A DNA stretch of 64,000 nt, taken from positions 1 through 64,000 of IMG/VR virus record IMGVR_UViG_2913177423_000001; one strand, given 5' to 3'. Of this stretch, positions 26,941 through 61,305 are shown piece after piece. The position numbers and the translations under genes were made by a program. Numbering within the stretch: position 1 is the first letter of the stretch; every line of letters begins with the position of its first letter. This stretch comes from a virus (lineage: Duplodnaviria > Heunggongvirae > Uroviricota > Caudoviricetes). The notes beneath the pieces are model-generated. The model did not search any database and was not told where the DNA came from. It worked only from the letters and a program-made list of their open reading frames with translations.

Positions 26941-26970
26941 TGTTAGATAAATGGAATTAATTTTCTAATA
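26941..26970. promoter_or_regulatory. overlapping inverted pair of C1-like operator motifs
   Basis: TGTTAGATAAATGGAAT on plus strand overlapping GAATTAATTTTCTAATA on minus strand; upstream of gene 27049 and the terminase genes. Confidence 0.5.
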
Positions 26971-27048
26971 TAGCTAACTTTTTGCCAGTCTATACAGAAA
27001 TAACATTCTCATTATCATCCCCTCGGTCATTTCCTGCCTGGGGGATTA

Positions 27049-30335: not shown

Positions 30336-31373
30336 TTACCAGAGTTTGGCGGCGCGCTGTGTTTGGGAGAAAGTGAACCCGTAACGTTCTTCTATGGTTT
30401 TACCGTATCTTTTACGGGCATCTGTCAGTTTTATGCCCGTAAGGTCATCTCCGGACATCATCATTACGTCTATTAACTCCAGATCCATTTTATTCAGTCT
30501 CGCCATTGCTTCGCGCGCAGTTTGTATTTTACGCTCAATGATATGGCGAATAGCCGGATCGGCTTCTTCAAGCATTTTGGTCGATTTGTTCTTTAAGCTC
30601 TCACTGCGGATATCGATGTTCCGCAAGATGTATGACTTCGCAACATAGCTTGGTTGGTGCTTCTCCAGATCGCGAACGCGATAAAGACTAAAATCACCAA
30701 TCAGGCCACAAGGTATCGACTCGACCCCAGAATAAATAGTAATGCTGCGACGTTCGCCGACATTATTAACAACGGGTACTGTGGTATCCGGAAGTTTTGC
30801 GAAAACTAAGGCGCCATGTGCGCCGACCCTGAATCGTGACAGAGTATTGCTGTCTTCGATGTTTGTTGTCAGCACGACATCTGTATATCCCTCTTTGCGC
30901 GCCCGGTAAATTTCACCTTCAGGTTCCGCCGCAAAAAAGCGGCGCTCTTCTTCAAGCGCCCCAACAATTTGTGAAAAAATCTTGTTTTTCAGGCTCTTCT
31001 TAATAATTGCGTCATACTTTTTGAGCAAATTTTCGCGTGTAAATGAGCGAGTAGTAGTCGCGCTTTGCACAACAATATGCGTGCTTTGATTCGTGTCCTC
31101 TATGATGATTGGGATCGGAGAATATACAGACTCAACAATGTTAGACGCTTTGCCGTCGGCATTACGGCACAAGTCAACAAAGGCTTTCCATTCTGCGAGG
31201 CACTTTTCAGCTTCTTCTAGTACATTCTGGTCATGCGTTAGTGCAACGTGGCGGAATTCCTCGCCAGCATAACTGGTATCATGGAAAACAGAGTTTGCGA
31301 CCACCAGCTCTTTCCACCGTTCAGCGGTTTGCAGGAACCGTTTGTACTCTTTCTCGATCGACTTCTTACTCAT
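30336..31373 (-). CDS. hypothetical 345-aa protein; C1-like immunity repressor candidate by position
   Basis: convergent with large terminase and preceded by operator-like motifs, as for P1 c1; no sequence-level confirmation. Confidence 0.35.
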   Translation of the reverse strand: MSKKSIEKEYKRFLQTAERWKELVVANSVFHDTSYAGEEFRHVALTHDQNVLEEAEKCLAEWKAFVDLCRNADGKASNIVESVYSPIPIIIEDTNQSTHIVVQSATTTRSFTRENLLKKYDAIIKKSLKNKIFSQIVGALEEERRFFAAEPEGEIYRARKEGYTDVVLTTNIEDSNTLSRFRVGAHGALVFAKLPDTTVPVVNNVGERRSITIYSGVESIPCGLIGDFSLYRVRDLEKHQPSYVAKSYILRNIDIRSESLKNKSTKMLEEADPAIRHIIERKIQTAREAMARLNKMDLELIDVMMMSGDDLTGIKLTDARKRYGKTIEERYGFTFSQTQRAAKLW

Positions 31374-31562: not shown

Positions 31563-31579
31563 TTCCTAATTTTCTAACT
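31563..31579 (-). promoter_or_regulatory. C1-like operator motif copy
   Basis: TAATTTTCTAAC core within the intergenic region between the repressor candidate and cre-like gene. Confidence 0.4.
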
Positions 31580-31758
31580 TTAGATAATTGGCATTATTTA
31601 AAGTTAGTATATAATAATGATCAAACGATCAGTATTGACAGACTCAAAAAGTCATGGTTCGAATCAAGGGCTTAAATTTTAAATTCTCACGGATAACTAG
31701 CCTGTCATTTTTTGTTTTTTCGCGTAGCGACACCAATTTATAGAGGTGAAATGATTAC

Positions 31759-34871: not shown

Positions 34872-34877
34872 TTTGAC

Positions 34878-36735: not shown

Positions 36736-36743
36736 TATCAACA

Positions 36744-36775
36744 AAAAGCCCGCCTGGTCTGGCGGGCTTCTTTTC
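36744..36775. terminator. bidirectional intrinsic terminator
   Basis: GCCCGCC-tggtct-GGCGGGC hairpin with A-run before and T-run after, between convergent genes. Confidence 0.7.
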
Positions 36776-37163
36776 ATAACACAGGGCAATCGTCAAATTC
36801 CCCACTCCGGGCATCATTGATGATGTGGGTGATCACGCCAAACACAGCATTGCTGCCTGTATATCCATCGTCATCCTTCGGCAACGCTTCCTTCTTGCCG
36901 GATCTTAAATCCTCCAGGTGCTGATGCGGATGCTTCCGGTATCTCTTTACGCGATATTCCCCCTCTATAGCACATACAAGCAGCGAACCATCAACTGGAG
37001 TGAGTGAGGAATCGACCACAAGCAACGCTCCTTGCAATATGCCTTCGCGGTAATGGCTGTCAGCCGCCCGCATGAAGTAGGTGGCTGATGGATGCCTGAT
37101 TAGGTGCTGATCAAGAGATATGCGGCGTTCAGCGTAATCCGCCGCAGGAGAAGGGAAGCCCAT
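36774..37163 (-). CDS. humD: UmuD-prime-like protein (HumD-like)
   Basis: 129 aa; S24 peptidase core LLVVDSSLTPVDGSLLVCAIEGEYRVKRY lacking the UmuD N-terminal arm, as in P1 HumD. Confidence 0.8.
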   Translation of the reverse strand: MGFPSPAADYAERRISLDQHLIRHPSATYFMRAADSHYREGILQGALLVVDSSLTPVDGSLLVCAIEGEYRVKRYRKHPHQHLEDLRSGKKEALPKDDDGYTGSNAVFGVITHIINDARSGEFDDCPVL

Positions 37164-37181
37164 AGCGTTTTCACCTCTAAA

Positions 37182-37201
37182 TACTGTTTATATATACAGT
37201 A
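37182..37201. promoter_or_regulatory. LexA (SOS) box
   Basis: TACTGTTTATATATACAGTA, perfect CTGT-N8-ACAG, about 20 bp upstream of humD start. Confidence 0.8.
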
Positions 37202-37261
37202 TACATTAAAGAGGCTTGAAGTGTGCAATAGAGCGATGCTTTGCGCTCGCCTGGTGGCGCG

Positions 37262-37513
37262 TTATTTTTTGGCTATATCATCTTTCTGATATACCGGATC
37301 GTTCCCTTTTGGCAGCTGGAGGCTTAACTGCCGGTAGTGCCGTAGCCGTTCCATGAAATAGGTGCGCAGGTTCTCCGGCTGCTCACGGGCTACCTGTTCC
37401 GCTATGACGGGTATGTTCAATCGCTCTTTGTAGGCTACGCCGCTGGCAGCAAGATCTACGTTTACCTTGTCTCGCTCTTCCTGATTTTTAGCCGCAATAT
37501 TCCAGTCTGACAT
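37262..37513 (-). CDS. hot: DNA polymerase III theta-subunit homolog (Hot-like)
   Basis: 83 aa; [36 protein letters not shown] closely matches HolE. Confidence 0.8.
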
Positions 37514-37534
37514 AAAATAGCCCTAATTTATTGA

Positions 37535-37948
37535 TTAGTGTTCATCCCAGGGAGACATATCCGGAAGGGTATCAACAATACGGAATTTACCGGGATAACG
37601 GTATCTACAGCCCGCCTGAGTCCATACAGTAACGACAAATCCCCCGCCCTGTTCATCTTCAGGTAGCAGGCGATCTGCTTGCTCGGAAACCATGTGGACC
37701 ACAAAAGGAGCATCACTACCGTCTTCGAATAGCACCTCAAGGGCGTCCCGGCCTTCCAGGCTACCTCTGCTGATGATGACATATTCTGCACCGCGCATTT
37801 CTTTCAACAAATGCTTTGCGGAGTCAGGCACAAGCAACCTGGCTGCGCCAGCGTTCCACGAGAGATACACATATCCAGCTCGTGCATTTTCTGACTTCCA
37901 GTAGTCAGTTTCCTTTAACGCCTGACCTTCGTTCTTAATGAAAAACAT
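37535..37948 (-). CDS. hypothetical protein (137 aa)
   Basis: ATG at 37948 preceded by AAGGGAG; track start lies further upstream. Confidence 0.5.
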   Translation of the reverse strand: MFFIKNEGQALKETDYWKSENARAGYVYLSWNAGAARLLVPDSAKHLLKEMRGAEYVIISRGSLEGRDALEVLFEDGSDAPFVVHMVSEQADRLLPEDEQGGGFVVTVWTQAGCRYRYPGKFRIVDTLPDMSPWDEH

Positions 37949-38030
37949 AAAAACTCCCTTTTCAAATTTTCGAGTAAACAACTTAGCGCGGAATCAGTAT
38001 TCGCCCCAAGATGTAAAAAGTCCACCAGCG

Positions 38031-38297
38031 TTATGGTTCGCATTTCCATATGGTGTTCTGAACGCCAGTACCGGGCGCGAGATGGGGGTTAGCGTTCGCG
38101 CTATGCTGATATACGGCTTTAGACTTTCCATATTGCTGACAGGCTTTATCTGCGGTTTTTTGCAGGCTATCCAGCCCATACCAGCCATCTGACTGAATGC
38201 TTACCTTTTCACCGTCGTTGTATTGCACCATCGCACACCCGGACATAGCCAACATCGCACCGACAATAACGCTTTTCCATAAAACTCTATGCAACAT
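38031..38297 (-). CDS. small lipoprotein
   Basis: signal peptide with lipobox LAMSGC; ATG at 38297 after GAGGGGA. Confidence 0.5.
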   Translation of the reverse strand: MLHRVLWKSVIVGAMLAMSGCAMVQYNDGEKVSIQSDGWYGLDSLQKTADKACQQYGKSKAVYQHSANANPHLAPGTGVQNTIWKCEP

Positions 38298-38366
38298 ATA
38301 CAAAAATCCCCTCTGTGAATTAAGGGGATTTTAACATGGTGATCGGATATCAGCTTTATCCGGAAT

Positions 38367-39119
38367 TTAATCAGCCTCCAGTGGCAATAACGCCTTAGCC
38401 ATTTCATGAATCAGCATGGCATCAATGACGCCTAGCGTATGGCCCGGCTTAATCTTTAATGCGGCCTCAAGATAGCCTCTTTCCAGAGTGGTTTTTACGC
38501 TTTTCCTGGGCGCTTGTTGGGGACTATCCGGAAGATCCGGATGGTTGCCAGCCTCATAAGCTACCCGCAACCAGTGCATGAATGTTTCCGCAGACACACA
38601 ACCACAGTCCACATCGATTTTCCCGCGTTGCTGTTCCAGCCATTGCTCAAAATCTAACTTGCAAGCCTTACTTTCAAGTTCATCACCATTGAACTCGACT
38701 TTCTGCGACGCTATGAGAGCGGCTTCGTACTGTTCGCGAGAGACAACTGACTGGTATTCATCGCTATCAAGGTCACGAATTGGAAGCTCAATCTCACGAC
38801 AAAAATTCCGCCCATAGAACTGGTCTTTTTTGTGGTCTGAGCCAAAAGCAAAAGTCGCGCATGGCGCCATTAAATTGACACTGAGTATGTGACAATAACT
38901 CATGCCATCAGGCCATCCGCCGCACTTAGGCAACTCCTTCACTAATAAGTCGATCAGCTTCATTGTTTTACCATCTTTGCAAGTCGCCAAAGCCATTTGA
39001 GCAAGCGCCAATACTTCATCTGCCGTATATCCAGCACCGTGACCATACATTTCTATTCGGGAAATAATCTCTGATATACGCTCTTTATTGATTCTGATCA
39101 TAGTTCTATTTCCTTGCAT
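38367..39119 (-). CDS. hypothetical protein (250 aa)
   Basis: long ORF in leftward operon; Cys-rich; no motif recognised. Confidence 0.5.
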   Translation of the reverse strand: MQGNRTMIRINKERISEIISRIEMYGHGAGYTADEVLALAQMALATCKDGKTMKLIDLLVKELPKCGGWPDGMSYCHILSVNLMAPCATFAFGSDHKKDQFYGRNFCREIELPIRDLDSDEYQSVVSREQYEAALIASQKVEFNGDELESKACKLDFEQWLEQQRGKIDVDCGCVSAETFMHWLRVAYEAGNHPDLPDSPQQAPRKSVKTTLERGYLEAALKIKPGHTLGVIDAMLIHEMAKALLPLEAD

Positions 39120-39322
39120 GGTTCGCCTTTACGGCACACAGTAGCGCGATCATTTCTCACATTAACCACTGTCACCGTCCCATCATCACATTGAGTAACA
39201 ATGAAAGGGTATTCGCTCTCTTTTATGCAATGTTGCTGTTCTCCAGCCGTTACAACAAAGGGGATTAATAAAGTCAAAAGCACTGCTAATTTACTAAATG
39301 TAGCCATAGCGATCGTTACCAT
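39098..39322 (-). CDS. small secreted Cys-containing protein
   Basis: N-terminal signal-like hydrophobic segment then four Cys. Confidence 0.4.
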   Translation of the reverse strand: MVTIAMATFSKLAVLLTLLIPFVVTAGEQQHCIKESEYPFIVTQCDDGTVTVVNVRNDRATVCRKGEPCKEIEL

Positions 39323-39522
39323 AACTTTCCTCCTGACTCAAAGTCAGCTATAAGCCAGGCTGCAAAAAGCGGAAACCCGCTCCAAAAACCACACGCCTCC
39401 GTACCCCATGTCACACCACCAGCCAACAAAACAAATAAACCGCAAAAGCATACAAACAAAAAAGTAATCCAAATTTCTTTCTGTTTTTCATTATGGTTGA
39501 CTCCAGTTATCTTCAATAACAA
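39316..39522 (-). CDS. small membrane protein (68 aa)
   Basis: two hydrophobic helices. Confidence 0.35.
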   Translation of the reverse strand: MLLKITGVNHNEKQKEIWITFLFVCFCGLFVLLAGGVTWGTEACGFWSGFPLFAAWLIADFESGGKLW

Positions 39523-39784
39523 TACTTAACCTCTGAAGCCATTCAGCTAATTTCAACATGGCTTCTCTTTCGCTTAAACCACGCGGAAAATCATCAAGCG
39601 AAATTGCTGGCTTGATGATCCCCGAATTATCCATTTCAACGGTCAGATTTTGCTCCAGCACGGTATTCCTTACGCGGCTATTGTGCCGAAGCAAATATAC
39701 TGAACGTGATTTATTGGTTTTGTGGTCGAACGTATATTCGGTAAGTATCATCTGGCTTCCGCCATGATTATTACCGCGCCACAT
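39491..39784 (-). CDS. hypothetical protein (97 aa)
   Basis: ORF in leftward operon. Confidence 0.4.
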   Translation of the reverse strand: MWRGNNHGGSQMILTEYTFDHKTNKSRSVYLLRHNSRVRNTVLEQNLTVEMDNSGIIKPAISLDDFPRGLSEREAMLKLAEWLQRLSIVIEDNWSQP

Positions 39785-39796
39785 AATTACTCCGTG

Positions 39797-40213
39797 TTAA
39801 TAAGAGAAATAGACCGTTGCAACACTGTTATATTGGTCGAACGAAATAGCATTTACTTCATAGCTGGTGGGCAGCTTCTTACCAAGAATGTAGCCTGGCC
39901 ATGAGTTCCACGGAATTTCTGCACGGTCGTCGTCTTGCCACATTACGCAACCAAGAGAGCCAACCATTTCACCATATCGCTTGCCACAAGTAACAAAGCC
40001 GATATTCGGCTTTTCTTGTGTTACTGATACCGTGGTGGTATTGGCAGATGCATTGATTGCAGTACGCCGCGCTTGCTCGCTAGCGATAGAAGCATTTACT
40101 GCCGCCGTGGTCGCTGCTGTTGCCGCCGCTCCAGCGGCAATAACTGACGCGTGGGATAAATGACTGGCTGATAACATAGCCAGAAAAATAATAGCTCTTT
40201 GAAATTTAGCCAT
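39797..40213 (-). CDS. secreted protein with signal peptide (138 aa)
   Basis: N-terminal signal sequence MAKFQRAIIFLAMLSASHLSHA followed by Ala/Thr-rich region. Confidence 0.45.
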   Translation of the reverse strand: MAKFQRAIIFLAMLSASHLSHASVIAAGAAATAATTAAVNASIASEQARRTAINASANTTTVSVTQEKPNIGFVTCGKRYGEMVGSLGCVMWQDDDRAEIPWNSWPGYILGKKLPTSYEVNAISFDQYNSVATVYFSY

Positions 40214-40487
40214 TGATATTCACCTTTATTGCGTACACCTTTACCGGATTCTCTCCAAAGTGCGGATGTGTAATTGTCTTTATTTCATACCCTTCATACG
40301 GGACGTCTATTCTGCGACTGGAGTCGTCGCGCTTCGGATATCCCCTTGTGATAATCAGGCGGTCATACTCCCGGAACATAATTCGCTTATTCCAGTAGTC
40401 ATTACACAGGCGATACTCTTCCGTTTTCTCTCCGCGAATGATGGCATCGAAGTATTCACCTTTAACGGCAAGTTGCAGGTTAGCCAC
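40206..40487 (-). CDS. ASCH/PUA-like small protein
   Basis: GTG at 40487 preceded by AAGGAG; GEYFDAIIRGEKTEEYRL pattern resembles ASCH domain proteins. Confidence 0.4.
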   Translation of the reverse strand: MANLQLAVKGEYFDAIIRGEKTEEYRLCNDYWNKRIMFREYDRLIITRGYPKRDDSSRRIDVPYEGYEIKTITHPHFGENPVKVYAIKVNING

Positions 40488-40989
40488 GGTTAACTCCTTG
40501 CTGTGTGGCGTCGAGTAATAAATCCCACAACCGCTGAGAGCAATTTCCGCATGTACAGCGTTGACCCACAACGTTTATCGCGTTGCTGATTTCCGGCGTT
40601 ACCTGTTTAGGAACCATAACCCAACCATCCGGAGTTACCGGAGAGTTGCGCATTGCGACCTTTAATGCCTCATAGAAGCAACTTTTCAGATTGTTGAACT
40701 GACGCCCATTTAGAGGGCCGTGTTCAGTCAGCATGTTGTGTAATTTCCATGCCGCGTCGTTTACTTCGTTGGATGACAGGGGAGGCAGCTTGTAAGCCTG
40801 GCTTACAGGCTCGTCACCATTAAGCATGGCAGCGCGGAGTTTCTGTATCTCCCGTGCCATTATTGCGTCCTGACGAGGAGTGAACATATCACCTGCAATA
40901 ATTCTGTTTAGTTCCTCGTCAGTGAACTCATAATCATCAGGAACATTGTTAACCTCAGCATAAAGAGGCTTTTTGGTAGAAATGGTCAT
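40480..40989 (-). CDS. hypothetical protein (169 aa)
   Basis: ORF in leftward operon. Confidence 0.5.
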   Translation of the reverse strand: MTISTKKPLYAEVNNVPDDYEFTDEELNRIIAGDMFTPRQDAIMAREIQKLRAAMLNGDEPVSQAYKLPPLSSNEVNDAAWKLHNMLTEHGPLNGRQFNNLKSCFYEALKVAMRNSPVTPDGWVMVPKQVTPEISNAINVVGQRCTCGNCSQRLWDLLLDATQQGVNRG

Positions 40990-41612
40990 CGTAAAACACC
41001 CTCCACACTTACCAGTCCGTTCCGCAAAAGATAATCCATCGCCCTATCTGGTAATTTGCAATCAGGTTTTGCTTTTTTCAGTTGGCTGACCAATTGTTTA
41101 ACCAGCATTGTTAATTCGATAACCTGGTAGCGCGGCAATGGTGAATTATCGGATTTGTCCTGACTGTCTGCGCTGCATGAATGCCCTTCCAGCCAAGCCA
41201 ATGCTTGTCGCATGAAATACGCAATATGTTTGCCGTGGTAATCGTCTTCATCGATGTGAAAAGCGATACTGCGGATGTATTCAATTGCGTTTTCAATGGC
41301 CTCCGGCGTTATCGGCGCTGACATATTTTGATTTTGGAATGCCAAGACGCGGCTGGCATCCTCAACACCTTTAACTGCATCTGCGCAGTAGTTATAGCGA
41401 TTGCATTCCACTAACTTCTGCTTGAGATTTTCAATTGCTTGCGCGATTTTATCCGGCACTGGCGGTTCTGCCCGGCCTTTCCAGCCTTCCCACATGGCAG
41501 CCATCATCACGAACCAGGTGTTTCCACAGCCATCTTTTTTGTTATCAAAGAACCAGTCAGCGAACTCTAGGCTCATGCCATTTTGTTCTGCTATTTCATA
41601 TCGATTATCCAT
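40986..41612 (-). CDS. hypothetical protein (208 aa)
   Basis: ATGA-coupled ORF. Confidence 0.5.
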   Translation of the reverse strand: MDNRYEIAEQNGMSLEFADWFFDNKKDGCGNTWFVMMAAMWEGWKGRAEPPVPDKIAQAIENLKQKLVECNRYNYCADAVKGVEDASRVLAFQNQNMSAPITPEAIENAIEYIRSIAFHIDEDDYHGKHIAYFMRQALAWLEGHSCSADSQDKSDNSPLPRYQVIELTMLVKQLVSQLKKAKPDCKLPDRAMDYLLRNGLVSVEGVLR

Positions 41613-41627
41613 TGTTCATCTCCTTGT

Positions 41628-41909
41628 TTAGCATGGCGGCGCGGCGTATAGCTTACGGGTCTGAACGCCTTCCCCAAGGCGTTTCTCTCCCTCGGCAAAC
41701 CATTCGAAAGCACATTCCCCGCAATCTTCCCATTCCCCCCATTCATCATTTTCTGCATCCCACTGGCGATACTGATATGCCACAGGCTCTGCTCCCAGCG
41801 ATGCCAGCGCAATTTCATAAGCACGGCGCTCAATATTGTCTCTAACGTCCAGGCTACCGATTCGCTCTTTGATTTCTTTAATCAGTTCTTTGTCTGTAAA
41901 AGTGTTCAT
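41628..41909 (-). CDS. hypothetical acidic Trp-rich protein (93 aa)
   Basis: ORF in leftward operon. Confidence 0.45.
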   Translation of the reverse strand: MNTFTDKELIKEIKERIGSLDVRDNIERRAYEIALASLGAEPVAYQYRQWDAENDEWGEWEDCGECAFEWFAEGEKRLGEGVQTRKLYAAPPC

Positions 41910-41912
41910 AGG

Positions 41913-42101
41913 TTATCCTCTAAGTGCCACAACGCGCACTTCCGGGTCAAAGGATGATGAATTTTCATCTGTAATATCAGCGACATGGACTACGAAATCG
42001 TTATAGTCACCCTCTGATTGGTCATAGCCCTGCCAGACCACGACAGCCTCAGGAGGCATTTTTCTGAGCTTGCTGATTAACTGCCTCACTGTCAGTGACA
42101 T
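41913..42101 (-). CDS. hypothetical small protein (62 aa)
   Basis: internal ATG at 42101 removes overlap with the upstream gene. Confidence 0.35.
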   Translation of the reverse strand: MSLTVRQLISKLRKMPPEAVVVWQGYDQSEGDYNDFVVHVADITDENSSSFDPEVRVVALRG

Positions 42102-42102
42102 A

Positions 42103-42657
42103 TCACTCTCCTTTGATGCGAATGCCAGCGGCGCGGATAGATTTCCATTGTTCCCACATTCGGTTGAAGTCTGTGCCTGATAAGGTTGCGTTACGGTATC
42201 CAGTTTCGGTACGCAATCCTTCAAGCGTCGATTTGGAGATACAAATTGAATGCATTACCCATGATTCAAACAAATCACGCTCCCGAGCTTCGCAACTTTG
42301 CTTACTCATATATTCGATACGATCAGCCATCGCAGCGCACTCTTCAAAGTTGCTAAATGCCTTTCGCTCCCATTCAGCGCATTGTTTTCTAAGCTCTGCA
42401 ATCAGCTTGTCTTTGCCTTCCAGCTCAACGCGCAGCTTCCCTACCGTTAGCGCAATATCCTCATTCTCCTGATCGCGGTGTTTGATGTATTGCTGGTTTC
42501 TTTCCCGTTCATCCAGAAGCGCTAGCACAATGTGTGGCGTTATCAAGGACTCAAATTCGGTAACAGCTTGCTCACCTCGCTTGTAATTCTTAATCCCACC
42601 TAAATTTTTCGCGTTCTGTGCCGCCTCACGCAGTGCCTGGTAATTAATTTCGCTCAC
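42103..42657 (-). CDS. coiled-coil protein, member of a three-gene paralog family
   Basis: shares the L-VELE-K-IAEL coiled-coil motif with 42654..43361 and 43681..44382. Confidence 0.5.
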   Translation of the reverse strand: MSEINYQALREAAQNAKNLGGIKNYKRGEQAVTEFESLITPHIVLALLDERERNQQYIKHRDQENEDIALTVGKLRVELEGKDKLIAELRKQCAEWERKAFSNFEECAAMADRIEYMSKQSCEARERDLFESWVMHSICISKSTLEGLRTETGYRNATLSGTDFNRMWEQWKSIRAAGIRIKGE

Positions 42658-43361
42658 TGGCTGCCTCCTTTGCGAAGCTCTGCGGCAAAGTCAGTGGCAT
42701 GTTCACCGAGTAGTTTCCAGTTATCGCGTATATCAGATGCAAGCGACTGTTCGGATTTTGAGTTACATTTCTGTGCAAACATCTCCACCCCCTGCGCCCG
42801 CACTTCAGCCAGGAAAGCGCCAGTAGCAGGAGTGTCAATGCAAACACTGTCACGAAGGATGAAGAACGCATTAAGCATTCCTCTTTCTGGTACATCGTCC
42901 TGGCATTCCTCATATGCAGCCAATGCATCCATCATTTTCTGACCGAATTGCGGAGGTTGTGCAGATTTCAGTGCTATATTCTCCGCCGCCAGCGTCGCGC
43001 GATTGCTCTCCAGTTCTGCAATGCGCTGTTTTGCGGCATCAAGTTCAATCGACAATTTTTCCAACTGCTCTTTATGCTTTTTGTATGCCTGATATGCGTG
43101 CCAGGACTGTCCTTTGCGCACACTTTCAGTAATATCAGAAATCTGTTCTGGTGTTAGCGTGGTCAGTGGCTGCGCCGGGAAAATCAGCACTTTCCCGGCA
43201 TCCCAATCAAAACCCGCCTGAATTGACTGAACCTCAACTGATGGTGTTGAACCAATGCTACCTGGTGAATGGATAACAATCGCCATGTCCATATCACGAT
43301 GCTGGCAGTGTTTGTTGGACAAGATACGATTCACCAACTCAGAAAATTTGGAAAATTTCAT
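42654..43361 (-). CDS. coiled-coil protein, member of a three-gene paralog family
   Basis: [20 protein letters not shown] and C-terminal [15 protein letters not shown] match the paralogs; start likely ATG at 43361. Confidence 0.5.
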
Positions 43362-43684
43362 GCTGATTCCCTTTGCTCTTCTTGGATAATGTTGTTGCAA
43401 TCTTTCACGCACTCGTCACAGATGAAAACGTTGTCCCCGGCAATTAACTTTTTGACGGTGTGCTGGGATTTATTGCAGAAGCTGCAATAAAGCGTTGGAC
43501 TGGCTGATACGGATGGTGCTCCGGATGTCAGCCGCGCGATGTCGTCCTTGCGGCGCAACATCACACGGCAGCACTCAGCAAGTTTCTCCGGGGAGATTCC
43601 TTCCTCCGTGGCGAGTGCCTCCAGTCGTTCAAGCACGTGGAAGGCTTTTTCCTGGGTAAATGCAGAATGTGATATGGCCATCAT
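43358..43684 (-). CDS. ClpX-type zinc-binding-domain protein
   Basis: C-terminal [39 protein letters not shown] is near-identical in pattern to the ClpX N-terminal C4 zinc finger. Confidence 0.65.
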
Positions 43685-44382
43685 CTCTCCCCTTCAAAGT
43701 TCGGGCGCAGGCAGGATTGTCCTTTACGAAGCAGGGCTGCGAACCTGTCAGCCGCATCCGCGCAAGCAGAAGCAACGGAATCAAAAAATGGATCATCTCC
43801 GGTATCGCGCATCGTCAAAGCGAATGCCTCCAATCCCTGAGCCTGTATTTCTACAAGATAAGCCTCAGATATAGTGCTTTTCGCTTCACCTAACTCGTTA
43901 TGAGCTATGTTCGCTACACATGCGATGTCTATATCTGGATGATTAATTGGGAGATGGCTAAGAATTGCCTCAAGTGCTGCTTTTTTGTTTTGGCATTCCG
44001 CCACCAGCGCCCCGCTATTGCTTTCCAGCTCTGCAATACACTTTTTAGCGGCCTCCAGCTCAACACGCAGCTTCTCAAGCGTTAGGGCCATCTCCACTTT
44101 CTCGTCCAGCAGTTCAATCACATCAGGATCGCTACCATCAACTACTGATATGCGCGAATTTTTGTAATGCTCGTCAGCATAAGTTCGTCCAGTTTTGAAG
44201 CGTCCGTCAGCCTCCATGCCGGAACAGGCATAAACAACATGTGATCCAGATATGCGTTCCATTGACATTTCCTCGCCACAAACAGAGCATTTAGGCGCTG
44301 GTTTCGGTGAATAACGTTCACGTAACGGATAGTAAAGCTCGATCTCCGCCAGTTGCTCTGGCGTTAAACCTTCAGACTTCAT
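43681..44382 (-). CDS. coiled-coil protein with N-terminal Cys cluster, member of a three-gene paralog family
   Basis: [20 protein letters not shown] and [16 protein letters not shown] shared with paralogs. Confidence 0.5.
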
Positions 44383-45582: not shown

Positions 45583-46161
45583 ATGCAGAGACAGAGTTAT
45601 TGGGAGAAACAGAGACAAAAAGCCATGCAAAAACTGGCTGATCCGGAATGGCGGGAAGAGCAAAGGGCAAAACGTCTTCAGCAGGCTCAACGCCAGCAGC
45701 AACGCGCAAGGGAAAAAGCCGCATCGCCTGAATATCGTCAAAAGAAACTTGAAAAAGTGAGGCAAAGTGAACAGCGCAGAAGAGAGAGGGCGGCGTCAGC
45801 CCTCCCCAAAAAAACGCGCCCGTCACGCGGATTAAAAGGGAGATCACTCACAGCAGAAGAGCGCCGGATACAGGAGGCTATAGGCAAACTCCCCTGTATT
45901 GCCTGCCATCTTCACGGGAAGCATAGCCCTGTCGTATCTCTCCACCACATATTTGGCAGAACGGCTAAAGATGCCCATAAATACGTTCTCCCTTTGTGTA
46001 AATGGCACCACCAGCACGCAGCGCCAGCAGAGATCCGCGAACAATATCCCTGGTTGGTTCCTGTTCATGCTGATGGAAAAATAGGCGGGAAAGCAGATTT
46101 TATACGGCACAATGCCGAAGAGATGACGCTCTATCAGACGGTGCAAGAAATGGTGAATTAA
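45583..46161 (+). CDS. ref: Ref-like HNH endonuclease
   Basis: 192 aa; highly charged disordered N-terminus followed by HNH-like Cys/His cluster CIACHLHGKH and CKWHHQ, as in P1 Ref. Confidence 0.7.
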   Translation: MQRQSYWEKQRQKAMQKLADPEWREEQRAKRLQQAQRQQQRAREKAASPEYRQKKLEKVRQSEQRRRERAASALPKKTRPSRGLKGRSLTAEERRIQEAIGKLPCIACHLHGKHSPVVSLHHIFGRTAKDAHKYVLPLCKWHHQHAAPAEIREQYPWLVPVHADGKIGGKADFIRHNAEEMTLYQTVQEMVN

Positions 46162-46171
46162 TTTTCTAACA
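46155..46171 (-). promoter_or_regulatory. C1-like operator motif copy
   Basis: GAATTAATTTTCTAACA, 16 of 17 to consensus, overlapping the ref-like stop. Confidence 0.5.
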
Positions 46172-46952
46172 TTTTATGTTGAGTTTGAAATTTACTGATT
46201 GTACATTTTGATTAGATTGGTTCACCGCTCGACGCAACGAGACAAATCCTCAAGGATTTCGTATGATTGCCAATGTCATAGTTATGGCAGCGCAATACAG
46301 GTGGCTAAAAGCCCCCGTTGACTCACGGTGTTCCAACCTGTATTGCGCCGCCACCAGACCGTGGAACAGTCTGTGACGGCTTCGAAAGCAAGGAGTCACT
46401 ATGAACAATTACAAACTTTTCCCATCACTCACCGTCTACTCACGCAATAACCTGCGTTCTTTGCTCCCATCAAAACTGGAGGGAGTATCAAAATGACCGT
46501 TCGCTACCTGAATTATCAAATCCAGAACATCACTGGCGGTTGCTATGACTGGTTTGTCACTCTTGGTAAAGAAGTGATCACCGGGAAGCTGGATGAAGTG
46601 AAAGCTAAAGCAATGGCCTACGCCTGCAAGCAAGCCCAAAAGAAGAAAAGAAAAGCATAAGAAAACACACTGTTGCGCCCTGGCATTATCGTGGGGTATA
46701 TTTCTACGGCACCTTAGAAAAACGGGTGCCGGGATTGGTCTCCCGGTAATGTCAAAGGCGACACATAGACGCCGCAAGCGTCTTTTTTGTTGTCGGCGCA
46801 CTCGCACACCTATCAATGGTGGGCTGTGTGGTGGCTTCCTCGGAAGCGCCGGTTCCCTTTGACGCCGGTAAGACCAACTCCACACAGTCCACCGCCAGTA
46901 AGATTGGTCTCTTCGGCGGTGGTATCGTTCACTGTCAAAGGAGGCTGCCAAT

Positions 46953-56831: not shown

Positions 56832-57481
56832 AGCGTAGAGCGCAGATAGTAGGAACCGAACACCCGGCAGGACTCATGCGCGCTCAGGTTCGAATTTTAC
56901 CTGACTGGAATGGAGTTCCCGACGATGATCTCCCCTGGGCAGAATACCAGTTACCCATAGGTAACGCGTTTGTACCTACAGTAAAAGGCGACCTGGTATG
57001 GGTAGAGTTTCCTTATCTGGATGTTAATGGTCGAATTGATACCAGACGCCCAATGATAGTTGGCGCGGCTCAGGATGCGCCTGGTGGAGTACCAAACGTC
57101 GCGCCGGAGGCGTCAGGCAATGGTAGCGGCTGGACGCCACCTGAAGTAGACGGAGCGCCTCCCCGCCCGCAATTTTCGGCGACAAAAGATTTCGTTATTC
57201 ACCGCAACAATGTGCTCGAAGTGCGAACGGTTGGCGGTGGATATGAAATAGCGAATACGGCAGCAGGCTCAAGGATAGGAATGAATGAATCAGGGCAGAT
57301 ATACATCATTGGCCCGGCTGATGTAGTAGTGAATGCGGGAGGGAGTGTTAACGTCAAATCAGCCGATAACATCAGCGTTAATGGCAAAAACATTTCTGTG
57401 ACAGCCGACGAAAATATTGATTTCAAGGCAGGAGGCACCTTCCAGGCTATCGCAAGCAACTTTGATTTCAAGAAGGGATAG
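56828..57481 (+). CDS. baseplate spike protein, gpV-like
   Basis: N-terminal OB-fold pattern QVRILPDWNGVPDDDLPWAEYQLPIGNAFVPTVKGDLVWVEFPYLDVNGR typical of phage baseplate assembly protein V. Confidence 0.5.
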   Translation: MKRRAQIVGTEHPAGLMRAQVRILPDWNGVPDDDLPWAEYQLPIGNAFVPTVKGDLVWVEFPYLDVNGRIDTRRPMIVGAAQDAPGGVPNVAPEASGNGSGWTPPEVDGAPPRPQFSATKDFVIHRNNVLEVRTVGGGYEIANTAAGSRIGMNESGQIYIIGPADVVVNAGGSVNVKSADNISVNGKNISVTADENIDFKAGGTFQAIASNFDFKKG

Positions 57482-57490
57482 AAAACACAT

Positions 57491-57536
57491 CCAATTGTGT
57501 TAGATAATTGAATAGAATTTTCTAACACAATTGGTG
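57491..57536. promoter_or_regulatory. large palindrome containing an inverted pair of C1-like operator motifs
   Basis: CCAATTGTGTTAGATAATTGAATAGAATTTTCTAACACAATTGG directly upstream of rdgC-like gene. Confidence 0.55.
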
Positions 57537-57540
57537 AAAC

Positions 57541-58446
57541 ATGAGATCTGTCGCTTTCAAAAACATCTTCATCTATCGTCTTTCACGTGAAGTTAACTGG
57601 AGTGCCGCAGAAGTATCCGATGCTCTTAGCAAATTCGTGTTTACTCCTTGCGGTTCTCAGGACACAGCTAAAGTCGGTTGGACACCTGTTCTTGGTGACA
57701 ACCTCACCCATGAATACCAGGGTTTTCTGCTAATACAGCATAAGCGAGAAGAAAAAATTCTCCCTTCGCAGGTGCTCAAGGAAGAGTTGCAGAAAAAAGT
57801 CCTGAAACTCGAAGAAGAGCAAGCACGCAAGCTGAAGAAAACGGAAAGAGACAGTCTTAAAGATGAAGTCCTGCATTCCCTTTTGCCTCGCGCGTTCACG
57901 AGAAAATCACTCGCCAAAATCCTGATCGACCGCAGCAACCATCTGGTATTCGTTGAGGCAAGCAGCGCCAAAAAGGCAGAGGATCAGCTGGCTTTATTGC
58001 GAAAATCGCTCGGCAGCCTGCCCGTCATTCCATTCACACCACGCGAACCGCTGGAAATCACAATGACCGAGTGGTTTAAAAACGGCTTCCCTGCCGGATT
58101 CACAGCAGGTGAAGATGCCACATTAAAGGCTCTGTTTGATGATGGTGGTGCCGTTCGCTGCAACAAAGTTGATCTACAGTCCGACGAGATTATGTCTCAC
58201 ATTGAGGCGGGGAAAGTAGCTACGACCGTTGCAATTAACTGGATGGACCGCGCGTCGTTCAGAGTAAACGATGATATGAGTATCAAAGCCCTGACATTCT
58301 GTGATGATCTCTATGACCAGAATGACGATATCGACCGGGAGGATGTAGCACAACGATTTGATGCTGATTTCGTGCTCTTTACGGGCGAATTATCTGCACT
58401 GTTTAACGCGCTGGTGGAGGCCATTGGCGGTGAAGCAGAACGATAA
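57541..58446 (+). CDS. rdgC: RdgC-like recombination-associated protein
   Basis: 301 aa; colinear with bacterial RdgC including [33 protein letters not shown] and [20 protein letters not shown]. Confidence 0.8.
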
Positions 58447-59110
58447 TAACCGACCGCTTGTTGTGAGTGTGTGTGATTTTACGGGGGGAATGGTTGCCCC
58501 CTGGCTGGAATACGGTGTCGATGCCGCTATCGTCGATCCACAGCACTTATCGACCAGTGACGAGCTGATGCAATCAGGTGCCGTTCTGACGCGTATTAGT
58601 GCGATCATCGATAGCGATGAAGTATACGCTTTTCTCCGTAAGAATTTGCAGCGCATCGTGTTTCTGGCCGGGTTCCCACCGTGTACTGACCTGGCTGTTT
58701 CCGGCGCGCGCTGGTTTTCGGACAAGGCTAATAAAGATCCGGTCTTCCAGTTCAAAGCAATGCAGGTTGTCTGGCAGTGTTATGACATTGCAAAGATGAT
58801 CGGTTGTCCGTACATGATTGAAAATCCGGTCAGCAAAATATCGACATTCTGGCGTAAGCCAGATCACATCTTTCACCCTTACTTCTTCACTGCATATTGT
58901 CAGGAAGATAACTACACCAAAAAAACATGCCTCTGGAGCGGCCAGGGCTTTGTCATGCCTGATGCCCTAATGGACGAATCATTAGGCAAGCCAGATAACA
59001 GAATCCATGCCGCGCCACCAGGGCCTGACAGGGCTAATTTTAGAAGTGCTACTCCACATGGATTCGCAAAGGCAGTTTTCGAAGCGAATAAGGGGGTGCT
59101 CTATGAGTAA
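58430..59110 (+). CDS. short C5-cytosine methyltransferase-like protein
   Basis: GTG at 58430 after GGAGG; motif I-like CDFTGGM, catalytic PPC motif [15 protein letters not shown]-like MIENP; lacks a normal target-recognition domain. Confidence 0.5.
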
Positions 59111-60008
59111 ATCTATAGCAAGCATAGCCATAGAAAAACGGGATACGATGGCTGAAATTAGCTATATGCGCACCATTCGGACTCCGGATGAATATGAGCG
59201 TCCGATCTTCAAATGGGTAGGTGGTAAATTCTCAGAATTGCCTACAGTGCTTGAGCATCTACCACACGGCAAGCGGTTAATAGAACCGTTCGTTGGTGGC
59301 GGTTCCGTATTTACGAATGCAGGATTTCGCCACAACCTGCTTAATGATATTAACGGTGACCTGATTAACTTCTATCAGACATTGCAGCGGGAAGGACATT
59401 CGCTCGTCACGCTGTCATATAGTTTTTTCAAAAATTACAACAACGCTGACGCTTACCTCGAAGTGCGTGAGGCATTTAACAGAGGAAAGTATGACCAGCT
59501 ACATCATGCTGCCGCCTTTTTGTACCTTAATCGGCACTGTTTTAATGGCGTAACACGGTACAACCAAAATGGCGATTTCAACGTGGGGTATGGCAAATAC
59601 AAAGCGCCCTACTTCCCACATGCAGAGATGGAGGCGTTTTTGGCTGATGACGTACTCAAAAACACATCCTTTGTATCAGGTGACTTTGCTGGCGTCATCG
59701 AGGCGGCTGGTGAAGACGATGTGATTTTTTGCGATCCGCCGTATGAACCGCTGCCGGATACAGAGGGATTTACCAGCTATTCAGGAAATAGCTTCCGTTT
59801 CGATGAACAAAAAAGGCTTGTATCACTGTTGGTGGCTGCCCACCAGCGCGGCGCGAAGGTAGTGATAACAAACAGTGGCGCGCCCAAAATTCGCGAATTG
59901 TACGAAAGAAACGGTTTTAAGCTGTACCACATGCCAGCCAGACGGTCCGTGTCATGCAAAGCATCCACGCGAATAGTCGCTAACGATATCATTGCAACGC
60001 TCAAATAG
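59103..60008 (+). CDS. dam: Dam-family N6-adenine DNA methyltransferase
   Basis: ATG at 59103 overlapping upstream stop; FKWVGGK, FVGGGSV and DPPY motifs. Confidence 0.85.
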   Translation: MSKSIASIAIEKRDTMAEISYMRTIRTPDEYERPIFKWVGGKFSELPTVLEHLPHGKRLIEPFVGGGSVFTNAGFRHNLLNDINGDLINFYQTLQREGHSLVTLSYSFFKNYNNADAYLEVREAFNRGKYDQLHHAAAFLYLNRHCFNGVTRYNQNGDFNVGYGKYKAPYFPHAEMEAFLADDVLKNTSFVSGDFAGVIEAAGEDDVIFCDPPYEPLPDTEGFTSYSGNSFRFDEQKRLVSLLVAAHQRGAKVVITNSGAPKIRELYERNGFKLYHMPARRSVSCKASTRIVANDIIATLK

Positions 60009-60031
60009 AAAAAGCCCCAGGCGGGGCTTTT
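60009..60031. terminator. bidirectional intrinsic terminator
   Basis: GCCCC-agg-CGGGGC flanked by A-run and T-run between convergent operons. Confidence 0.7.
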
Positions 60032-60069
60032 GATGCCGATACAGTGTCAATTTGATATCAATATGGTTG

Positions 60070-60135
60070 TATATTAACACCATTACGGCACCACTTTGAC
60101 ACCATTATTGCACCGGTACATGATAGACACCAATG
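60070..60135. repeat. iteron-like ACACCA/GCACCA repeats downstream of ParA/RHH cassette
   Basis: AACACCATT, GGCACCACT, GACACCATT, GCACCGG, GACACCAAT within 65 bp. Confidence 0.45.
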
Positions 60136-60151
60136 AGGCATCAAATCGGTA

Positions 60152-60436
60152 TCATTTTGCATCCTCTGACTCAGCAAGCATGAGGATGGCATGTCGAATC
60201 AGGTTCAATTTGCTGCGGTTAAGCTTTTTGCTTAACGCATCGAGCACCCCGTACTCATATTCATTAAAGCTCACGCGTATGGATTTAAAGTCACGCGGCG
60301 CATCTTTATCTGGAGTTTGAGTTGCAGCCTCAACGCCCGGCACCAAATCGGCTTTAATGGCGAACTCTTCAATGCGGCGCTCTAGTTCAGGGTCTTTTAC
60401 AGCTTGTGCATTCACTGGCTCACGGCGCTTAATCAC
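60152..60436 (-). CDS. ribbon-helix-helix partition protein, ParG-like
   Basis: 94 aa; flexible N-terminus then RHH-like KSIRVSFNEYEYGVLDA; coupled downstream of ParA-like gene. Confidence 0.55.
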   Translation of the reverse strand: MIKRREPVNAQAVKDPELERRIEEFAIKADLVPGVEAATQTPDKDAPRDFKSIRVSFNEYEYGVLDALSKKLNRSKLNLIRHAILMLAESEDAK

Positions 60437-61065
60437 GATAACAACTCCTTAATCAACATCTGGATCTCGCCCTTTGCTTTCCCGTTGTCCATTTCAACAA
60501 CACCCTTCCCTTCTGCCATGCAGTCACGATAAATCTTACGGTCACGGACGACAGTTTTCAGGAGTTCAAGTTGCGGGTATTCAGCAAGATATTCCCTTGC
60601 CTCATTGGCTTCGTTAACGACCGGGTTGGATGGTGCCATAGTCAGCATGGCATACGCCTTAAGTTTAGGGTTGAAATCCATCGCCTCAGCTATAACCTCA
60701 ACAAGGTGCGGTAGAGTATCCAGATCCGGCTGGGAAGGACGGAACGGCACCAGAAGCACATCTGCCGCTGTCATGCCTGTACGCATCTCACGACTGTCGC
60801 GACCAGCAGTATCGACGACAACGTACTCGTAACGTTTATCCAGATCGAGCAGCGTCTCACGAATATTATCGAACTTCTGCACGCAGTGAATGACAGGGGC
60901 AACCTCACCTGCATTACGGTCTGACGCCCATCGAGCTGCCGTTCCCTGTTTATCAGCATCAATCAAGACGACATCTTTGTTTTTTCGGGCCAGCTCGGCA
61001 CAAATATTGACGCTGGTGGTTGACTTGCCACAGCCTCCCTTTTGACTTGCTACCAGGATAATCAT
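60433..61065 (-). CDS. small ParA-family partition ATPase
   Basis: deviant Walker A KGGCGKST at N-terminus; 210 aa. Confidence 0.8.
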   Translation of the reverse strand: MIILVASQKGGCGKSTTSVNICAELARKNKDVVLIDADKQGTAARWASDRNAGEVAPVIHCVQKFDNIRETLLDLDKRYEYVVVDTAGRDSREMRTGMTAADVLLVPFRPSQPDLDTLPHLVEVIAEAMDFNPKLKAYAMLTMAPSNPVVNEANEAREYLAEYPQLELLKTVVRDRKIYRDCMAEGKGVVEMDNGKAKGEIQMLIKELLS

Positions 61066-61142
61066 GTCCGCACCTCGGCTTTATTACGGCTCTATTTTCA
61101 CACTAAAACAGTACCGATTTAACACATCAACGGTACAGCAAT

Positions 61143-61305
61143 AGCACCATTCTTAATGCCAGGAGTATAACATCAAATCCGATGGATACTGGTACACGTT
61201 TTGCGCCTGAATAGCACTAAATTAGCACCAAATATGCACCAGTACATTAACAACACCAATTCGGCGTTGTTTTGGTGCCACTTCAACACCATTTTGACAC
61301 CAAAA
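61143..61305. repeat. iteron-like GCACCA/ACACCA repeat array upstream of ParA-like gene, candidate centromere
   Basis: at least seven copies of (A/G)(G/A)CACCA(A/T)T in direct and inverted orientation. Confidence 0.5.

Follow-up and report, generated by a model that had tools for sequence, protein, structure and literature searches.

The window, that is the whole 64-kb stretch of DNA that was analysed, is a D6-like plasmid prophage of the P1 family. It is collinear with phage D6, to which it is 94% identical at the operon locus, and it is matched by 119 plasmids in PLSDB. At this locus a palindrome precedes three genes, which encode a protein of the RdgC family (HrdC), a short protein resembling C5-cytosine DNA methyltransferases and a Dam N6-adenine methyltransferase (Table 1). 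The genes are coupled translationally via overlapping stops and starts, and a hairpin terminator closes the unit. An operator-preceded unit of these three genes had been proposed in a preliminary description and is borne out by the palindrome, the motif sites, the open reading frames and the HMM matches. The possibility raised there that the rdgC gene is flanking host chromosome is ruled out, as the neighbours are phage genes (a baseplate gene 5 homologue upstream and a ParA-like gene downstream). The operon is already known, since all three genes are named in the GenBank record of D6, and it is ordinary except for its small and poorly characterised type of cytosine methylase.

Table 1. Features of the rdgC-dcm-dam operon and the presumed repressor gene
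Feature	Position	Strand	Basis
Predicted sigma-70 promoter	57479..57508	+	-35 TAGAAA (57479-57484), 18-nt spacer, -10 GATAAT (57503-57508); consensus scan 9/12
Palindrome, bivalent (two inverted copies) putative D6-type C1 operator	57491..57534	.	Inverted-repeat search, motif enrichment, P1 comparison
Left copy of putative operator, TTGTGTTAGATAATT	57495-57509	+	Motif scan
Right copy of putative operator, TTGTGTTAGAAAATT	57516-57530	-	Motif scan
hrdC/rdgC, 301-aa RdgC-family recombination-associated protein	57541..58446	+	PF04381, NF001462, phrog_724, P1/D6 identity
Short (226 aa) TRD-less C5-cytosine DNA methyltransferase-like protein, D6 orf64 homologue	58430..59110	+	ORF, motifs, fold
dam, 301-aa D12-class N6-adenine DNA methyltransferase	59103..60008	+	PF02086, TIGR00571, P1/D6 identity
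GC-rich stem-loop AAAAGCCCCAGGCGGGGCTTTT, likely bidirectional intrinsic terminator	60010..60031	.	Terminator scan
c1 homologue, 345 aa, presumed repressor of operator motif	30336..31373	-	Maps to D6 orf1 'prophage repressor, similar to P1 gene C1'

HrdC matches PF04381 (E 3e-103; 345.6 bits, cutoff 25) with residues 6-298 aligned to positions 3-298 of the 298-position model, as well as NCBIfam NF001462 (PRK00321; 383.5 bits, cutoff 330) and phrog_724. It shows 52% identity to HrdC of P1 and 94.7% identity to the protein encoded by D6 orf65. Although RdgC had been regarded as unusual in a phage, P1 carries hrdC in the same operon, a phrog exists for the family and homologues are found in 298 phage records. 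RdgC of E. coli is a ring-shaped dimer which binds DNA and interferes with RecA. HrdC would be a DNA-binding protein of this family and is presumed to modulate RecA.

Dam matches PF02086 (E 8e-56; 190 bits, cutoff 22) and TIGR00571 (247.7 bits, cutoff 114.85), and its translation holds the AdoMet motif FVGGGS (in EPFVGGGSVF) and the catalytic motif DPPY (in FCDPPYEP). It is 95.7% identical to the protein encoded by D6 orf63 and 68% identical to residues 478-753 of P1 Dmt, which the P1 record describes as GATC-methylating. From its identity to the Dam half of Dmt, the enzyme is probably an N6-adenine methyltransferase acting on GATC and an orthologue of the C-terminal half of the P1 protein. 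The ATG of dam overlaps the stop of the preceding gene in ATGAGTAA. The stem-loop starts 2 nt past the dam stop and was called by the scan on the minus strand, the T-run on the plus strand being just TTTT.

The gene between them starts with GTG, has GGAGG 8 nt upstream and shares 17 nt with the 3' end of rdgC. Its product had no match to any Pfam family even at E 10 (PF00145 included) or to any NCBIfam family. When PDB was searched with phmmer and with a 42-sequence profile, no C5-methylase was found; the only match was ornithine decarboxylase (E about 0.4), which was judged to be due to chance. The protein does match phrog_757 (E 2.7e-77), and it is assigned as a C5-methylase from its fold, its motifs and a single preprint. 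Its predicted structure has the fold of a C5-methylase catalytic domain, with catalytic Cys85 in FPPC (82-85), Glu131 in ENPV (131-134) and Lys164/165. Motif IV (F82-P83-P84-C85-T86), which follows strand 76-81 of the predicted structure, is invariant in 42 family members, and motif VI (E131-N132-P133-V134), which follows strand 128-131, is invariant in the family. The doubt expressed in the preliminary description as to whether the catalytic Cys would be retained in a proper alignment is therefore removed. In all there are sixty invariant columns across the 42 members, the family invariants being C15/D16/G19, DPQH, FPPCT, ENPV and R..N.RSATP.GF.

Other parts of the protein are further from the standard pattern. 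Motif I is degenerate in the D6-type clade (CDFTGG, C15-D16-x-T18-G19, rather than FxGxG), with one Gly kept, and it is in the correct place after strand 1. Motif VIII (QxRxR) and motif IX were not recognisable in the family alignment, and a conserved NYTKKTCLW takes the equivalent strand of motif VIII. As had been noted previously, there is no obvious target-recognition domain (TRD): only ~25 residues (172-198) lie between the NYTKKTCLW strand and the C-terminal helix, and residues 190-210 are poorly modelled (pLDDT about 70). Compared with canonical PF00145 enzymes (M.HhaI, M.HaeIII, DNMT3), the protein is without QxRxR, motif IX and a TRD; M.HhaI, with 327 aa, is ~100 residues longer. It would be a minimal, TRD-less C5-cytosine DNA methyltransferase belonging to a 'Dcm-like' family of phages.

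Members of this short family are stand-alone proteins of ~215-250 aa, which make up at least 2596 clusters when grouped at 50% identity and are present in 1572 phage records. They also occur alone, without Dam, in the nin regions of lambdoid phages and in virulent Drexlerviridae. In one member an intein interrupts the sequence directly ahead of the catalytic Cys. A rare fusion of short Dcm to Dam (P0121) was seen in a single case, on a 2-kb contig where RdgC is absent upstream, and hints faintly at a functional link between the two activities.

Dcm of phage K42 (KarlJaspers-like Drexlerviridae) is the trigger of retron Ec86/Eco1 (bioRxiv 10.1101/2023.08.16.553469). It has 236 aa, with C82, E128 and K175/176, and was modelled onto DNMT3A by the authors; it raises 5mC in msDNA as measured by LC-MS, and a catalytic mutant does not (bioRxiv 10.1101/2023.08.16.553469). 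The orthologue of K42 Dcm in JLBYU16 (Warwickvirus) aligns with the 226-aa protein (BLASTP E 2e-40), placing C85/E131/K164-165 on C82/E128/K175-176. K42 Dcm belongs to the same short family, but is only 36% identical to the protein of the window. As motif I the K42 type has FDGSG and the window protein CDFTGG, and the K42 type carries a 14-residue insertion ahead of the KK motif. Furthermore, K42 dcm is a stand-alone gene in a virulent siphovirus, away from Dam, whereas the window gene adjoins dam. The earlier suggestion that the short protein may be inactive appears not to hold, given the invariance of the catalytic motifs in 42 members, the intein at the catalytic Cys and a homologue reported to make 5mC.

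It is unlikely that the short enzyme is something other than a plain site-defined 5mC DNA methylase. It might have relaxed or structure-dependent specificity (for ssDNA or hairpins, for instance), transfer a group other than methyl (such as carboxymethyl from Cx-SAM) or modify a different kind of nucleic acid. The small number of residues modelled, and poorly so, at the position of the TRD would be in keeping with such an enzyme, but DNMT3 enzymes also function with very small TRDs. Host Dcm (MG1655 dcm+) neither gives high msDNA methylation nor triggers the retron, unlike the phage K42 enzyme (bioRxiv 10.1101/2023.08.16.553469). For K42 Dcm, a CCWGG specificity was taken over from host Dcm by analogy rather than measured or mapped (bioRxiv 10.1101/2023.08.16.553469). 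Against an atypical activity, the LC-MS of the same study found 5mC, and hence a methyl group, on DNA, and mutation of CCTGG in the msDNA abolished defence (bioRxiv 10.1101/2023.08.16.553469). In addition, canonical C5 domains fill the same slot in P1 and in the D6-like plasmid pE2863-2, which argues for an equivalent role.

The palindrome upstream of these genes is the best short-range inverted repeat of the entire window. Its arms (57491-57509 and 57516-57534) are 19 nt each and 95% complementary, with one mismatch, around a 6-nt centre. It had been described as a 46-bp palindrome with two operator motifs; the palindrome and both motifs stand, but the measured length is 44 bp. The sequence TTGTGTTAGAWAATT is present in both arms with no mismatches, and with up to three mismatches it occurs at 19 sites in the window (4.3 expected). 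The 12-mer TGTTAGAAAATT, with at most one mismatch, has 15 sites where 0.54 are expected, a number reached in none of 100 shuffles. Sites of the TGTTAGAAAATT type are found upstream of the homologues of ref, lpa, c1, icd/ant (antirepressor), pmgR/S and hrdC. In P1, ref, lpa, c1, icd/antirepressor and pmgR/S are C1-controlled, and the D6-type sites are at the equivalent positions. At 13 other positions equivalent to P1 operators the 12-15-nt motif is present as single, non-palindromic copies. The motif resembles the P1 C1 operator consensus ATTGCTCTAATAAATTT, with about 9-11 of 15-16 positions matching listed P1 operators when compared by eye. Operators of the P1 type are dispersed asymmetric motifs of ~17 bp at the promoters of early and immunity genes, and the sites in the window fit this pattern. 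When viral and GTDB genome contigs were scanned with the palindrome core, only unrelated chance matches were obtained.

Operator-like sites are also located immediately upstream of the c1 homologue (31390 and 31568), a gene far from the operon.

Across six diverged relatives neither the operator core nor GATAAT changes, whereas the palindrome centre and outer arms vary. GATAAT is the predicted -10 hexamer and falls within the left operator copy. The predicted -35 is weak and, in the consensus scan, promoter-like matches in the region were no commoner than by chance; this promoter may drive the operon. A P1-type late promoter in the palindrome (TAGAAT, 57513-57518) was considered and rejected, as the AAnTGACTA -22 box is missing and the TAGAAT is not kept in D6.

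Regulation of the operon can be pictured as follows. A weak sigma-70 promoter would have its -10 in the left operator copy, and the right copy would lie over the predicted start of transcription. While the element is a plasmid prophage, C1 would sit on both copies and the operon would be off. After induction or infection, one mRNA would be made, from which coupled translation via the overlapping stop and start codons would give the three proteins. Both methylases would mark replicating phage DNA, and both marks might be expected to blunt restriction. P1 requires Dam methylation at pac, and control of the P1 dam methylase by C1 through Op68 was reportedly published in 1989.

The palindrome could instead act mainly as an RNA or DNA hairpin, an attenuator or insulator by which read-through out of the late tail-gene operon upstream would be stopped or masked, but this is rather improbable. 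Its predicted RNA fold is strong (-22.7 kcal/mol, z -6.15; 0 of 200 shuffles fold as well), and the 3' arm overlaps the Shine-Dalgarno sequence of rdgC, ending in the GG of GGTGA. The outer arms, read by eye, differ among four lineages yet stay complementary (CCAAT/ATTGG, CCATT/AATGG, GCAAAAC/GTTTTGC), and these positions are not conserved in other operator copies. This co-variation beyond the operator core is left unexplained by the operator model alone. However, there is no T-run after the palindrome and therefore it is not a classical terminator. The best-conserved part is exactly the dispersed motif seen in single copies elsewhere, and P1 too has bivalent palindromic C1 operators. Moreover, a hairpin role could coexist with an operator role. 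In Obanab of P1 (formerly Op72ab), two inverted copies of the C1 operator likewise form a palindrome overlapping early-gene promoter hexamers. The Obanab copies overlap by 6 bp to give a 28-bp palindrome, whereas the window copies are 6 bp apart and the palindrome extends 4 nt past each.

With the palindrome read as a bivalent C1 operator, the RdgC-Dcm-Dam operon is very probably the D6-lineage counterpart of the C1-repressed early operon of P1, Odmt(Op68)-Pdmt-uhr-hrdC-dmt. The P1 record (NC_005856) annotates the C1 operator Odmt (formerly Op68), Pdmt, uhr, hrdC and dmt, so that in P1, too, the gene for an RdgC homologue precedes methylase functions of the C5 and Dam types. P1 has an extra first gene, uhr. 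Odmt is a single monovalent operator beside the -35, whereas the window has a bivalent palindrome over the -10 and +1. The operator sequences also differ (TGTGTTAGAAAATT in P1 against TGCTCTAATAAATT in the window), a difference which would fit differing immunity specificities of P1 and the D6-type phage. D6 itself (MF356679) has the same genes in the same order with the same overlapping stops and starts (orf65-orf64-orf63; amino-acid identity of the cytosine methylase 98.7%). Their products are annotated as RdgC family, putative DNA-cytosine methylase and DNA-adenine methylase, and no operator is annotated. The D6 palindrome has the same architecture, differing from that of the window in one compensated outer-arm base pair and in the 6-nt centre. 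Downstream of dam, D6 has glnS, which is absent from the window.

The clearest departure from P1 is in the cytosine methylase. P1 has, fused to Dam, a canonical PF00145 domain of 470 aa that clearly shows QRRRR, RRLTPVECERLQGFPD and GNS; in the window the C5 part is a stand-alone protein unrelated in sequence. BLASTP gave no detectable similarity between the 226-aa protein and the PF00145 domain of P1 Dmt (E 2.9). With hhalign, the short family against P1-type C5 domains gave a probability of 0.09%, with a low-diversity template and FPPC placed on GTPC. A homologue search with the N-domain of P1 Dmt returned near-identical P1-type proteins only and no diverse C5 set. The plasmid pE2863-2 has a P1-type fused Dmt (85% identity) in the same slot behind an identical operator, and this therefore represents a cassette swap, not a split.

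It had been suggested that the fused Dmt of P1 appears here as separate genes, but only Dam is orthologous to it, and the 226-aa protein appears from its sequence to be a different stand-alone family in the slot of the Dmt C5 domain. That the two genes are Dmt split in two, with a Dcm-like half now deprived of its TRD and either inactive or in decay, is very hard to sustain: the order is that of P1 Dmt (C5-type part first, Dam second), the Dam part is clearly orthologous and split P1-type C5-only proteins are known (for example, P0271, 473 aa), but the 226-aa protein has no such similarity to Dmt, its family stands alone and is also found without Dam, the sixty invariant columns including the catalytic Cys and Glu mean that it is not decayed, and its homologue K42 Dcm is reported to be catalytically active.

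The operon itself adds nothing new, as it is the form taken in the D6 family by a P1 unit that has been known for decades. The comparison does correct the idea that D6 'split' P1 Dmt: the C5 module is exchangeable, either a canonical fused domain or a minimal stand-alone enzyme. It also connects a product labelled 'hypothetical protein' in about 100 phage-plasmids from E. coli, Salmonella and Shigella with the short Dcm family, the trigger of retron Ec86, and this could bear on the range of hosts that such phage-plasmids can enter or in which they can be induced. More tentatively, the short family, with no Pfam or NCBIfam model and no TRD, could possibly be a relaxed-specificity or structure-directed cytosine methylase; secondarily, the compensatory outer arms could mark an RNA hairpin insulating the early operon from late read-through. 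M.EcoGII is a non-specific adenine methylase. If relaxed specificity were true, the short family would be its C5 counterpart, which phages could interchange with canonical C5 domains in a Dam-linked slot. The D6-type C1 operator consensus can be used to annotate these clinically common phage-plasmids.

The three-gene unit studied here, encoding an RdgC-family protein (ORF1), a 226-aa C5-cytosine-methylase-like protein (ORF2) and a Dam methylase (ORF3), is what the D6 family has in place of the hrdC-dmt operon that C1 controls in P1. It is already known, being annotated in the GenBank record of Escherichia phage D6 with the same reading frames, starts and overlaps. Megablast matches 57400-60100 to D6 (94.3% identity, 95% query coverage) and to 119 PLSDB plasmids from E. 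coli, Salmonella and Shigella, nearly all non-mobilizable, and the window is collinear with D6 along its whole length in reverse orientation; this places the unit in a plasmid prophage of the P1 family that resembles D6, and outside the host chromosome. The flanking genes are also phage genes, with a homologue of P1 gene 5 (baseplate) upstream and orf61-like and ParA-like genes downstream, which contradicts assignment of the RdgC-like gene to flanking chromosome. The observation made in the preliminary description is confirmed and its interpretation partly supported.

Coordinates of the unit and of sequences related to its operator; gene assignments for the other operator-motif copies come from mapping onto the D6 annotation
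Feature	Position	Length	Remarks
ORF1, RdgC family	57541-58446	301 aa	
ORF2, short protein	58430-59110	226 aa	GTG start, GGAGG 8 nt upstream; 17-nt overlap with ORF1 stop
ORF3, Dam	59103-60008	301 aa	ATG within ATGAGTAA, overlapping ORF2 stop
GC-rich stem-loop	60010-60031		After last stop of unit
Palindrome arms	57491-57509 / 57516-57534	19 nt each	One mismatch; 6-nt centre
Operator-motif copy	45502		Upstream of ref homologue
Operator-motif inverted pair	26938/26959		Upstream of lpa homologue
Operator-motif copy	31390		Upstream of c1
Operator-motif copies	9822; 46160/46179		Before the two icd/antirepressor modules
Operator-motif copies	21316, 22566, 22722		Around pmgR/pmgS
Operator-motif copy	32792		After cre
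c1 homologue	30336-31373		

ORF1 belongs to the RdgC family over its full length (PF04381, E 3e-103; NF001462, above the equivalog cutoff; phrog_724) and shares 52% identity with P1 HrdC; ORF3 is a D12-class Dam (PF02086, TIGR00571) with motifs FVGGGS and DPPY. An RdgC homologue had been thought unusual in a phage, but it is no novelty: homologues occur in 298 of 50,697 phage records, including P1-like phages (for example, RCS47), ICP1 and many Vibrio and Pseudomonas phages, and the P1 record has hrdC in the homologous operon. RdgC in phages is thus uncommon but well established. In P1, uhr, hrdC and dmt were non-essential in a CRISPRi screen, and a review describes dmt as needed for packaging in dam- hosts.

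The palindrome at 57491-57534 is the strongest short-range inverted repeat within the 64-kb window. It was described as 46 bp with two operator motifs; its length is 44 bp, and each arm does contain TTGTGTTAGAWAATT. It resembles the consensus of P1 operators, ATTGCTCTAATAAATTT, and, as the 12-mer TGTTAGAAAATT with ≤ 1 mismatch, is found at 15 sites in the window against 0.54 expected, a count that no shuffle reached. In P1, ref, lpa and c1 are under C1 control. Most of the gene sets next to the motif are covered by the C1 operators annotated in the examined part of the P1 record (c4/icd/ant, pmgM, pmgR/S and dmt). The P1 dmt operon itself has a C1 operator (Odmt, formerly Op68) at its promoter, and the operator of the P1 ban promoter is both bivalent and palindromic. 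In the best promoter match for the window unit, the -10 hexamer GATAAT (57503-57508) falls within the left copy of the motif, and the right copy spans the predicted start. Six relatives all keep the operator cores and GATAAT unchanged and differ in palindrome centres and outer arms. We infer that C1 binds the palindrome and that the promoter is used.

Two more inverted operator pairs, with members about 5-6 nt apart, are found upstream of the lpa homologue (26938-26973) and between ref and the second icd/antirepressor module (46160-46193), suggesting that bivalent operators may serve several D6-type promoters. The window has two icd/antirepressor modules, as does D6. An operator-like match at 31568-31582 may be part of rox instead of an operator, because it overlaps the left arm of a 20-nt-arm inverted repeat (31569-31612) that maps onto this lox-like recombination site of D6.

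The 4 to 7 nt outside the operator core differ yet stay complementary in four lineages (CCAAT/ATTGG, CCATT/AATGG, GCAAAAC/GTTTTGC and TCAAT/ATTGGA), as seen by comparing 57487-57537 with homologous sites in four related loci (L001, L013, L014 and L016). These positions are not conserved at other operator copies in the window. The predicted RNA fold of the palindrome has an energy of -22.7 kcal/mol (z -6.15). The 3' arm overlaps the Shine-Dalgarno sequence of rdgC. Given the compensatory arms, the predicted fold and this overlap, the palindrome may, besides its presumed operator role, work as an RNA hairpin when transcription of the tail operon reads through. Another possible explanation is that intrastrand repair homogenises the arms.

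ORF2 has no match in Pfam, NCBIfam or PDB sequences and matches phrog_757 ("DNA methyltransferase", E 2.7e-77). Its family is very large and tightly conserved, with > 7900 90%-identity clusters in a search limited to 8000 candidates and 2596 50%-identity representatives (both at E ≤ 1e-3), nearly all members being 205-260 aa long. Homologues occur in 1572 of 50,697 phage records, including Dhillonvirus, Webervirus, Drexlerviridae and rV5-like phages, annotated variously as "DNA cytosine methyltransferase" or "hypothetical protein". The gene stands alone in the nin region of lambdoid prophages, after ninB, and likewise in a Warwickvirus; thus, its occurrence is not tied to Dam or RdgC. In an Agrobacterium prophage (L005, 1603-6708) the early operon encodes an RdgC-FtsK_gamma fusion and a class I SAM methyltransferase, with a short-Dcm family member about 3 kb beyond, so RdgC-like and short-Dcm genes co-occur, non-adjacent, in unrelated temperate phages.

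Invariant in a 42-member alignment are C15/D16/G19, D36-P-Q-H39, F82-P-P-C85-T, E131-N-P-V134 and R201..N203.R205-S-A-T-P209.G-F; the catalytic Cys (C85) is therefore present. In a confident AlphaFold2 model (pLDDT 87.5, pTM 0.86) the conserved motifs come after strands 1, 2, 4 and 5 of a sheet with Rossmann-like topology and on a helix at the C-terminus. No more than about 25 residues, modelled with lower confidence, occupy the expected position of a target-recognition domain (TRD), bearing out the reported lack of an obvious TRD. Fold comparison scored DNMT3B at 12.2, prophage methylase 3g7u and C5-carboxymethyltransferase 8yf3 at 11.8 each, DNMT3A at 10.7, DNMT1 at 10.1 and generic Rossmann folds at ≤ 9.8; Foldseek by itself gave a marginal result.

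A studied homologue is the product of the 711-bp "dcm" gene of the KarlJaspers-like phage K42, the trigger of retron Ec86. Its catalytic and substrate residues (C82, E128 and K175/K176) were taken from AlphaFold superposition on DNMT3A, and by LC-MS the wild-type protein, not a quadruple mutant, raised 5mC in msDNA; its CCWGG specificity is an analogy with host Dcm, supported solely by a mutated msDNA site (bioRxiv 10.1101/2023.08.16.553469). The Warwickvirus JLBYU16 orthologue, which read from an internal Met has exactly the length and numbering of K42 Dcm, is 36% identical to ORF2 (E 2e-40), and the alignment pairs these residues with C85, E131 and K164-165. By analogy with K42 Dcm, ORF2 is most likely an active C5-cytosine methylase. 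Natural variants also favour a working active site in the family: the metagenomic protein P0224 carries a Hint/LAGLIDADG intein whose insertion point is precisely the junction of FPP with the catalytic Cys, and P0121, seen on only one 2-kb contig, fuses the short methylase domain to a Dam domain. With invariant motifs, an intein at the Cys and a homologue reported to make 5mC, the suggested inactivity of ORF2 is unlikely. Hint and LAGLIDADG domains also occur in P0366, a P1-type PF00145 methylase from E. coli, so inteins are found in both kinds of phage C5-methylase.

In P1 Dmt, a canonical PF00145 domain (residues 8 to ~460; GTPCQAFS, ENVPG, QRRRR, RRLTPVECERLQGFPD and GNS) is fused to Dam. 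The two parts of Dmt were proposed to appear here as separate genes; this holds for the Dam part (ORF3 is 68% identical to Dmt residues 478-753) and not for the C5 part, to which ORF2 shows no similarity (BLASTP E 2.9; hhalign probability 0.09%). The D6 arrangement is therefore not a split P1 Dmt. In the D6-like plasmid pE2863-2 (NZ_AP018804, 3170-6419), whose replicon cluster differs (2221 versus 1704), an operator palindrome identical to that of D6 and an RdgC with 87% identity are followed by a fused Dmt of the P1 type, 762 aa long and sharing 85% identity with that of P1, which takes the place of the short Dcm and Dam. In this slot, the C5 module is an exchangeable cassette. In NCBI records, several P1 Dmt homologues (P0280, P0300 and P0306; C5 plus Dam) bear the name "multidrug DMT transporter permease", apparently because the symbol dmt was taken to mean the drug/metabolite transporter family.

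Between dam and orf61, D6 has glnS (glutaminyl-tRNA synthetase, 1.66 kb), which is absent from the window; here the likely terminator comes straight after the dam stop (60008), and the next gene is the orf61-like one (60152-60436, - strand), with no glnS in 60009-61272. The stretch 59998-61272, with the orf61-like and ParA-like genes, has no megablast-level match in D6. Nucleotide similarity to D6 is only patchy over about 10 kb (34189-44344), a variable accessory region with isaA/dUTPase-side genes on one side and ES18/N15-like small ORFs on the other. In a 98%-identical relative, PLSDB plasmid NZ_CP122510.1 (H4), the match to the operon breaks into two parts, the annotation beneath it includes an IS91-family transposase, and the operon is apparently interrupted by an IS.
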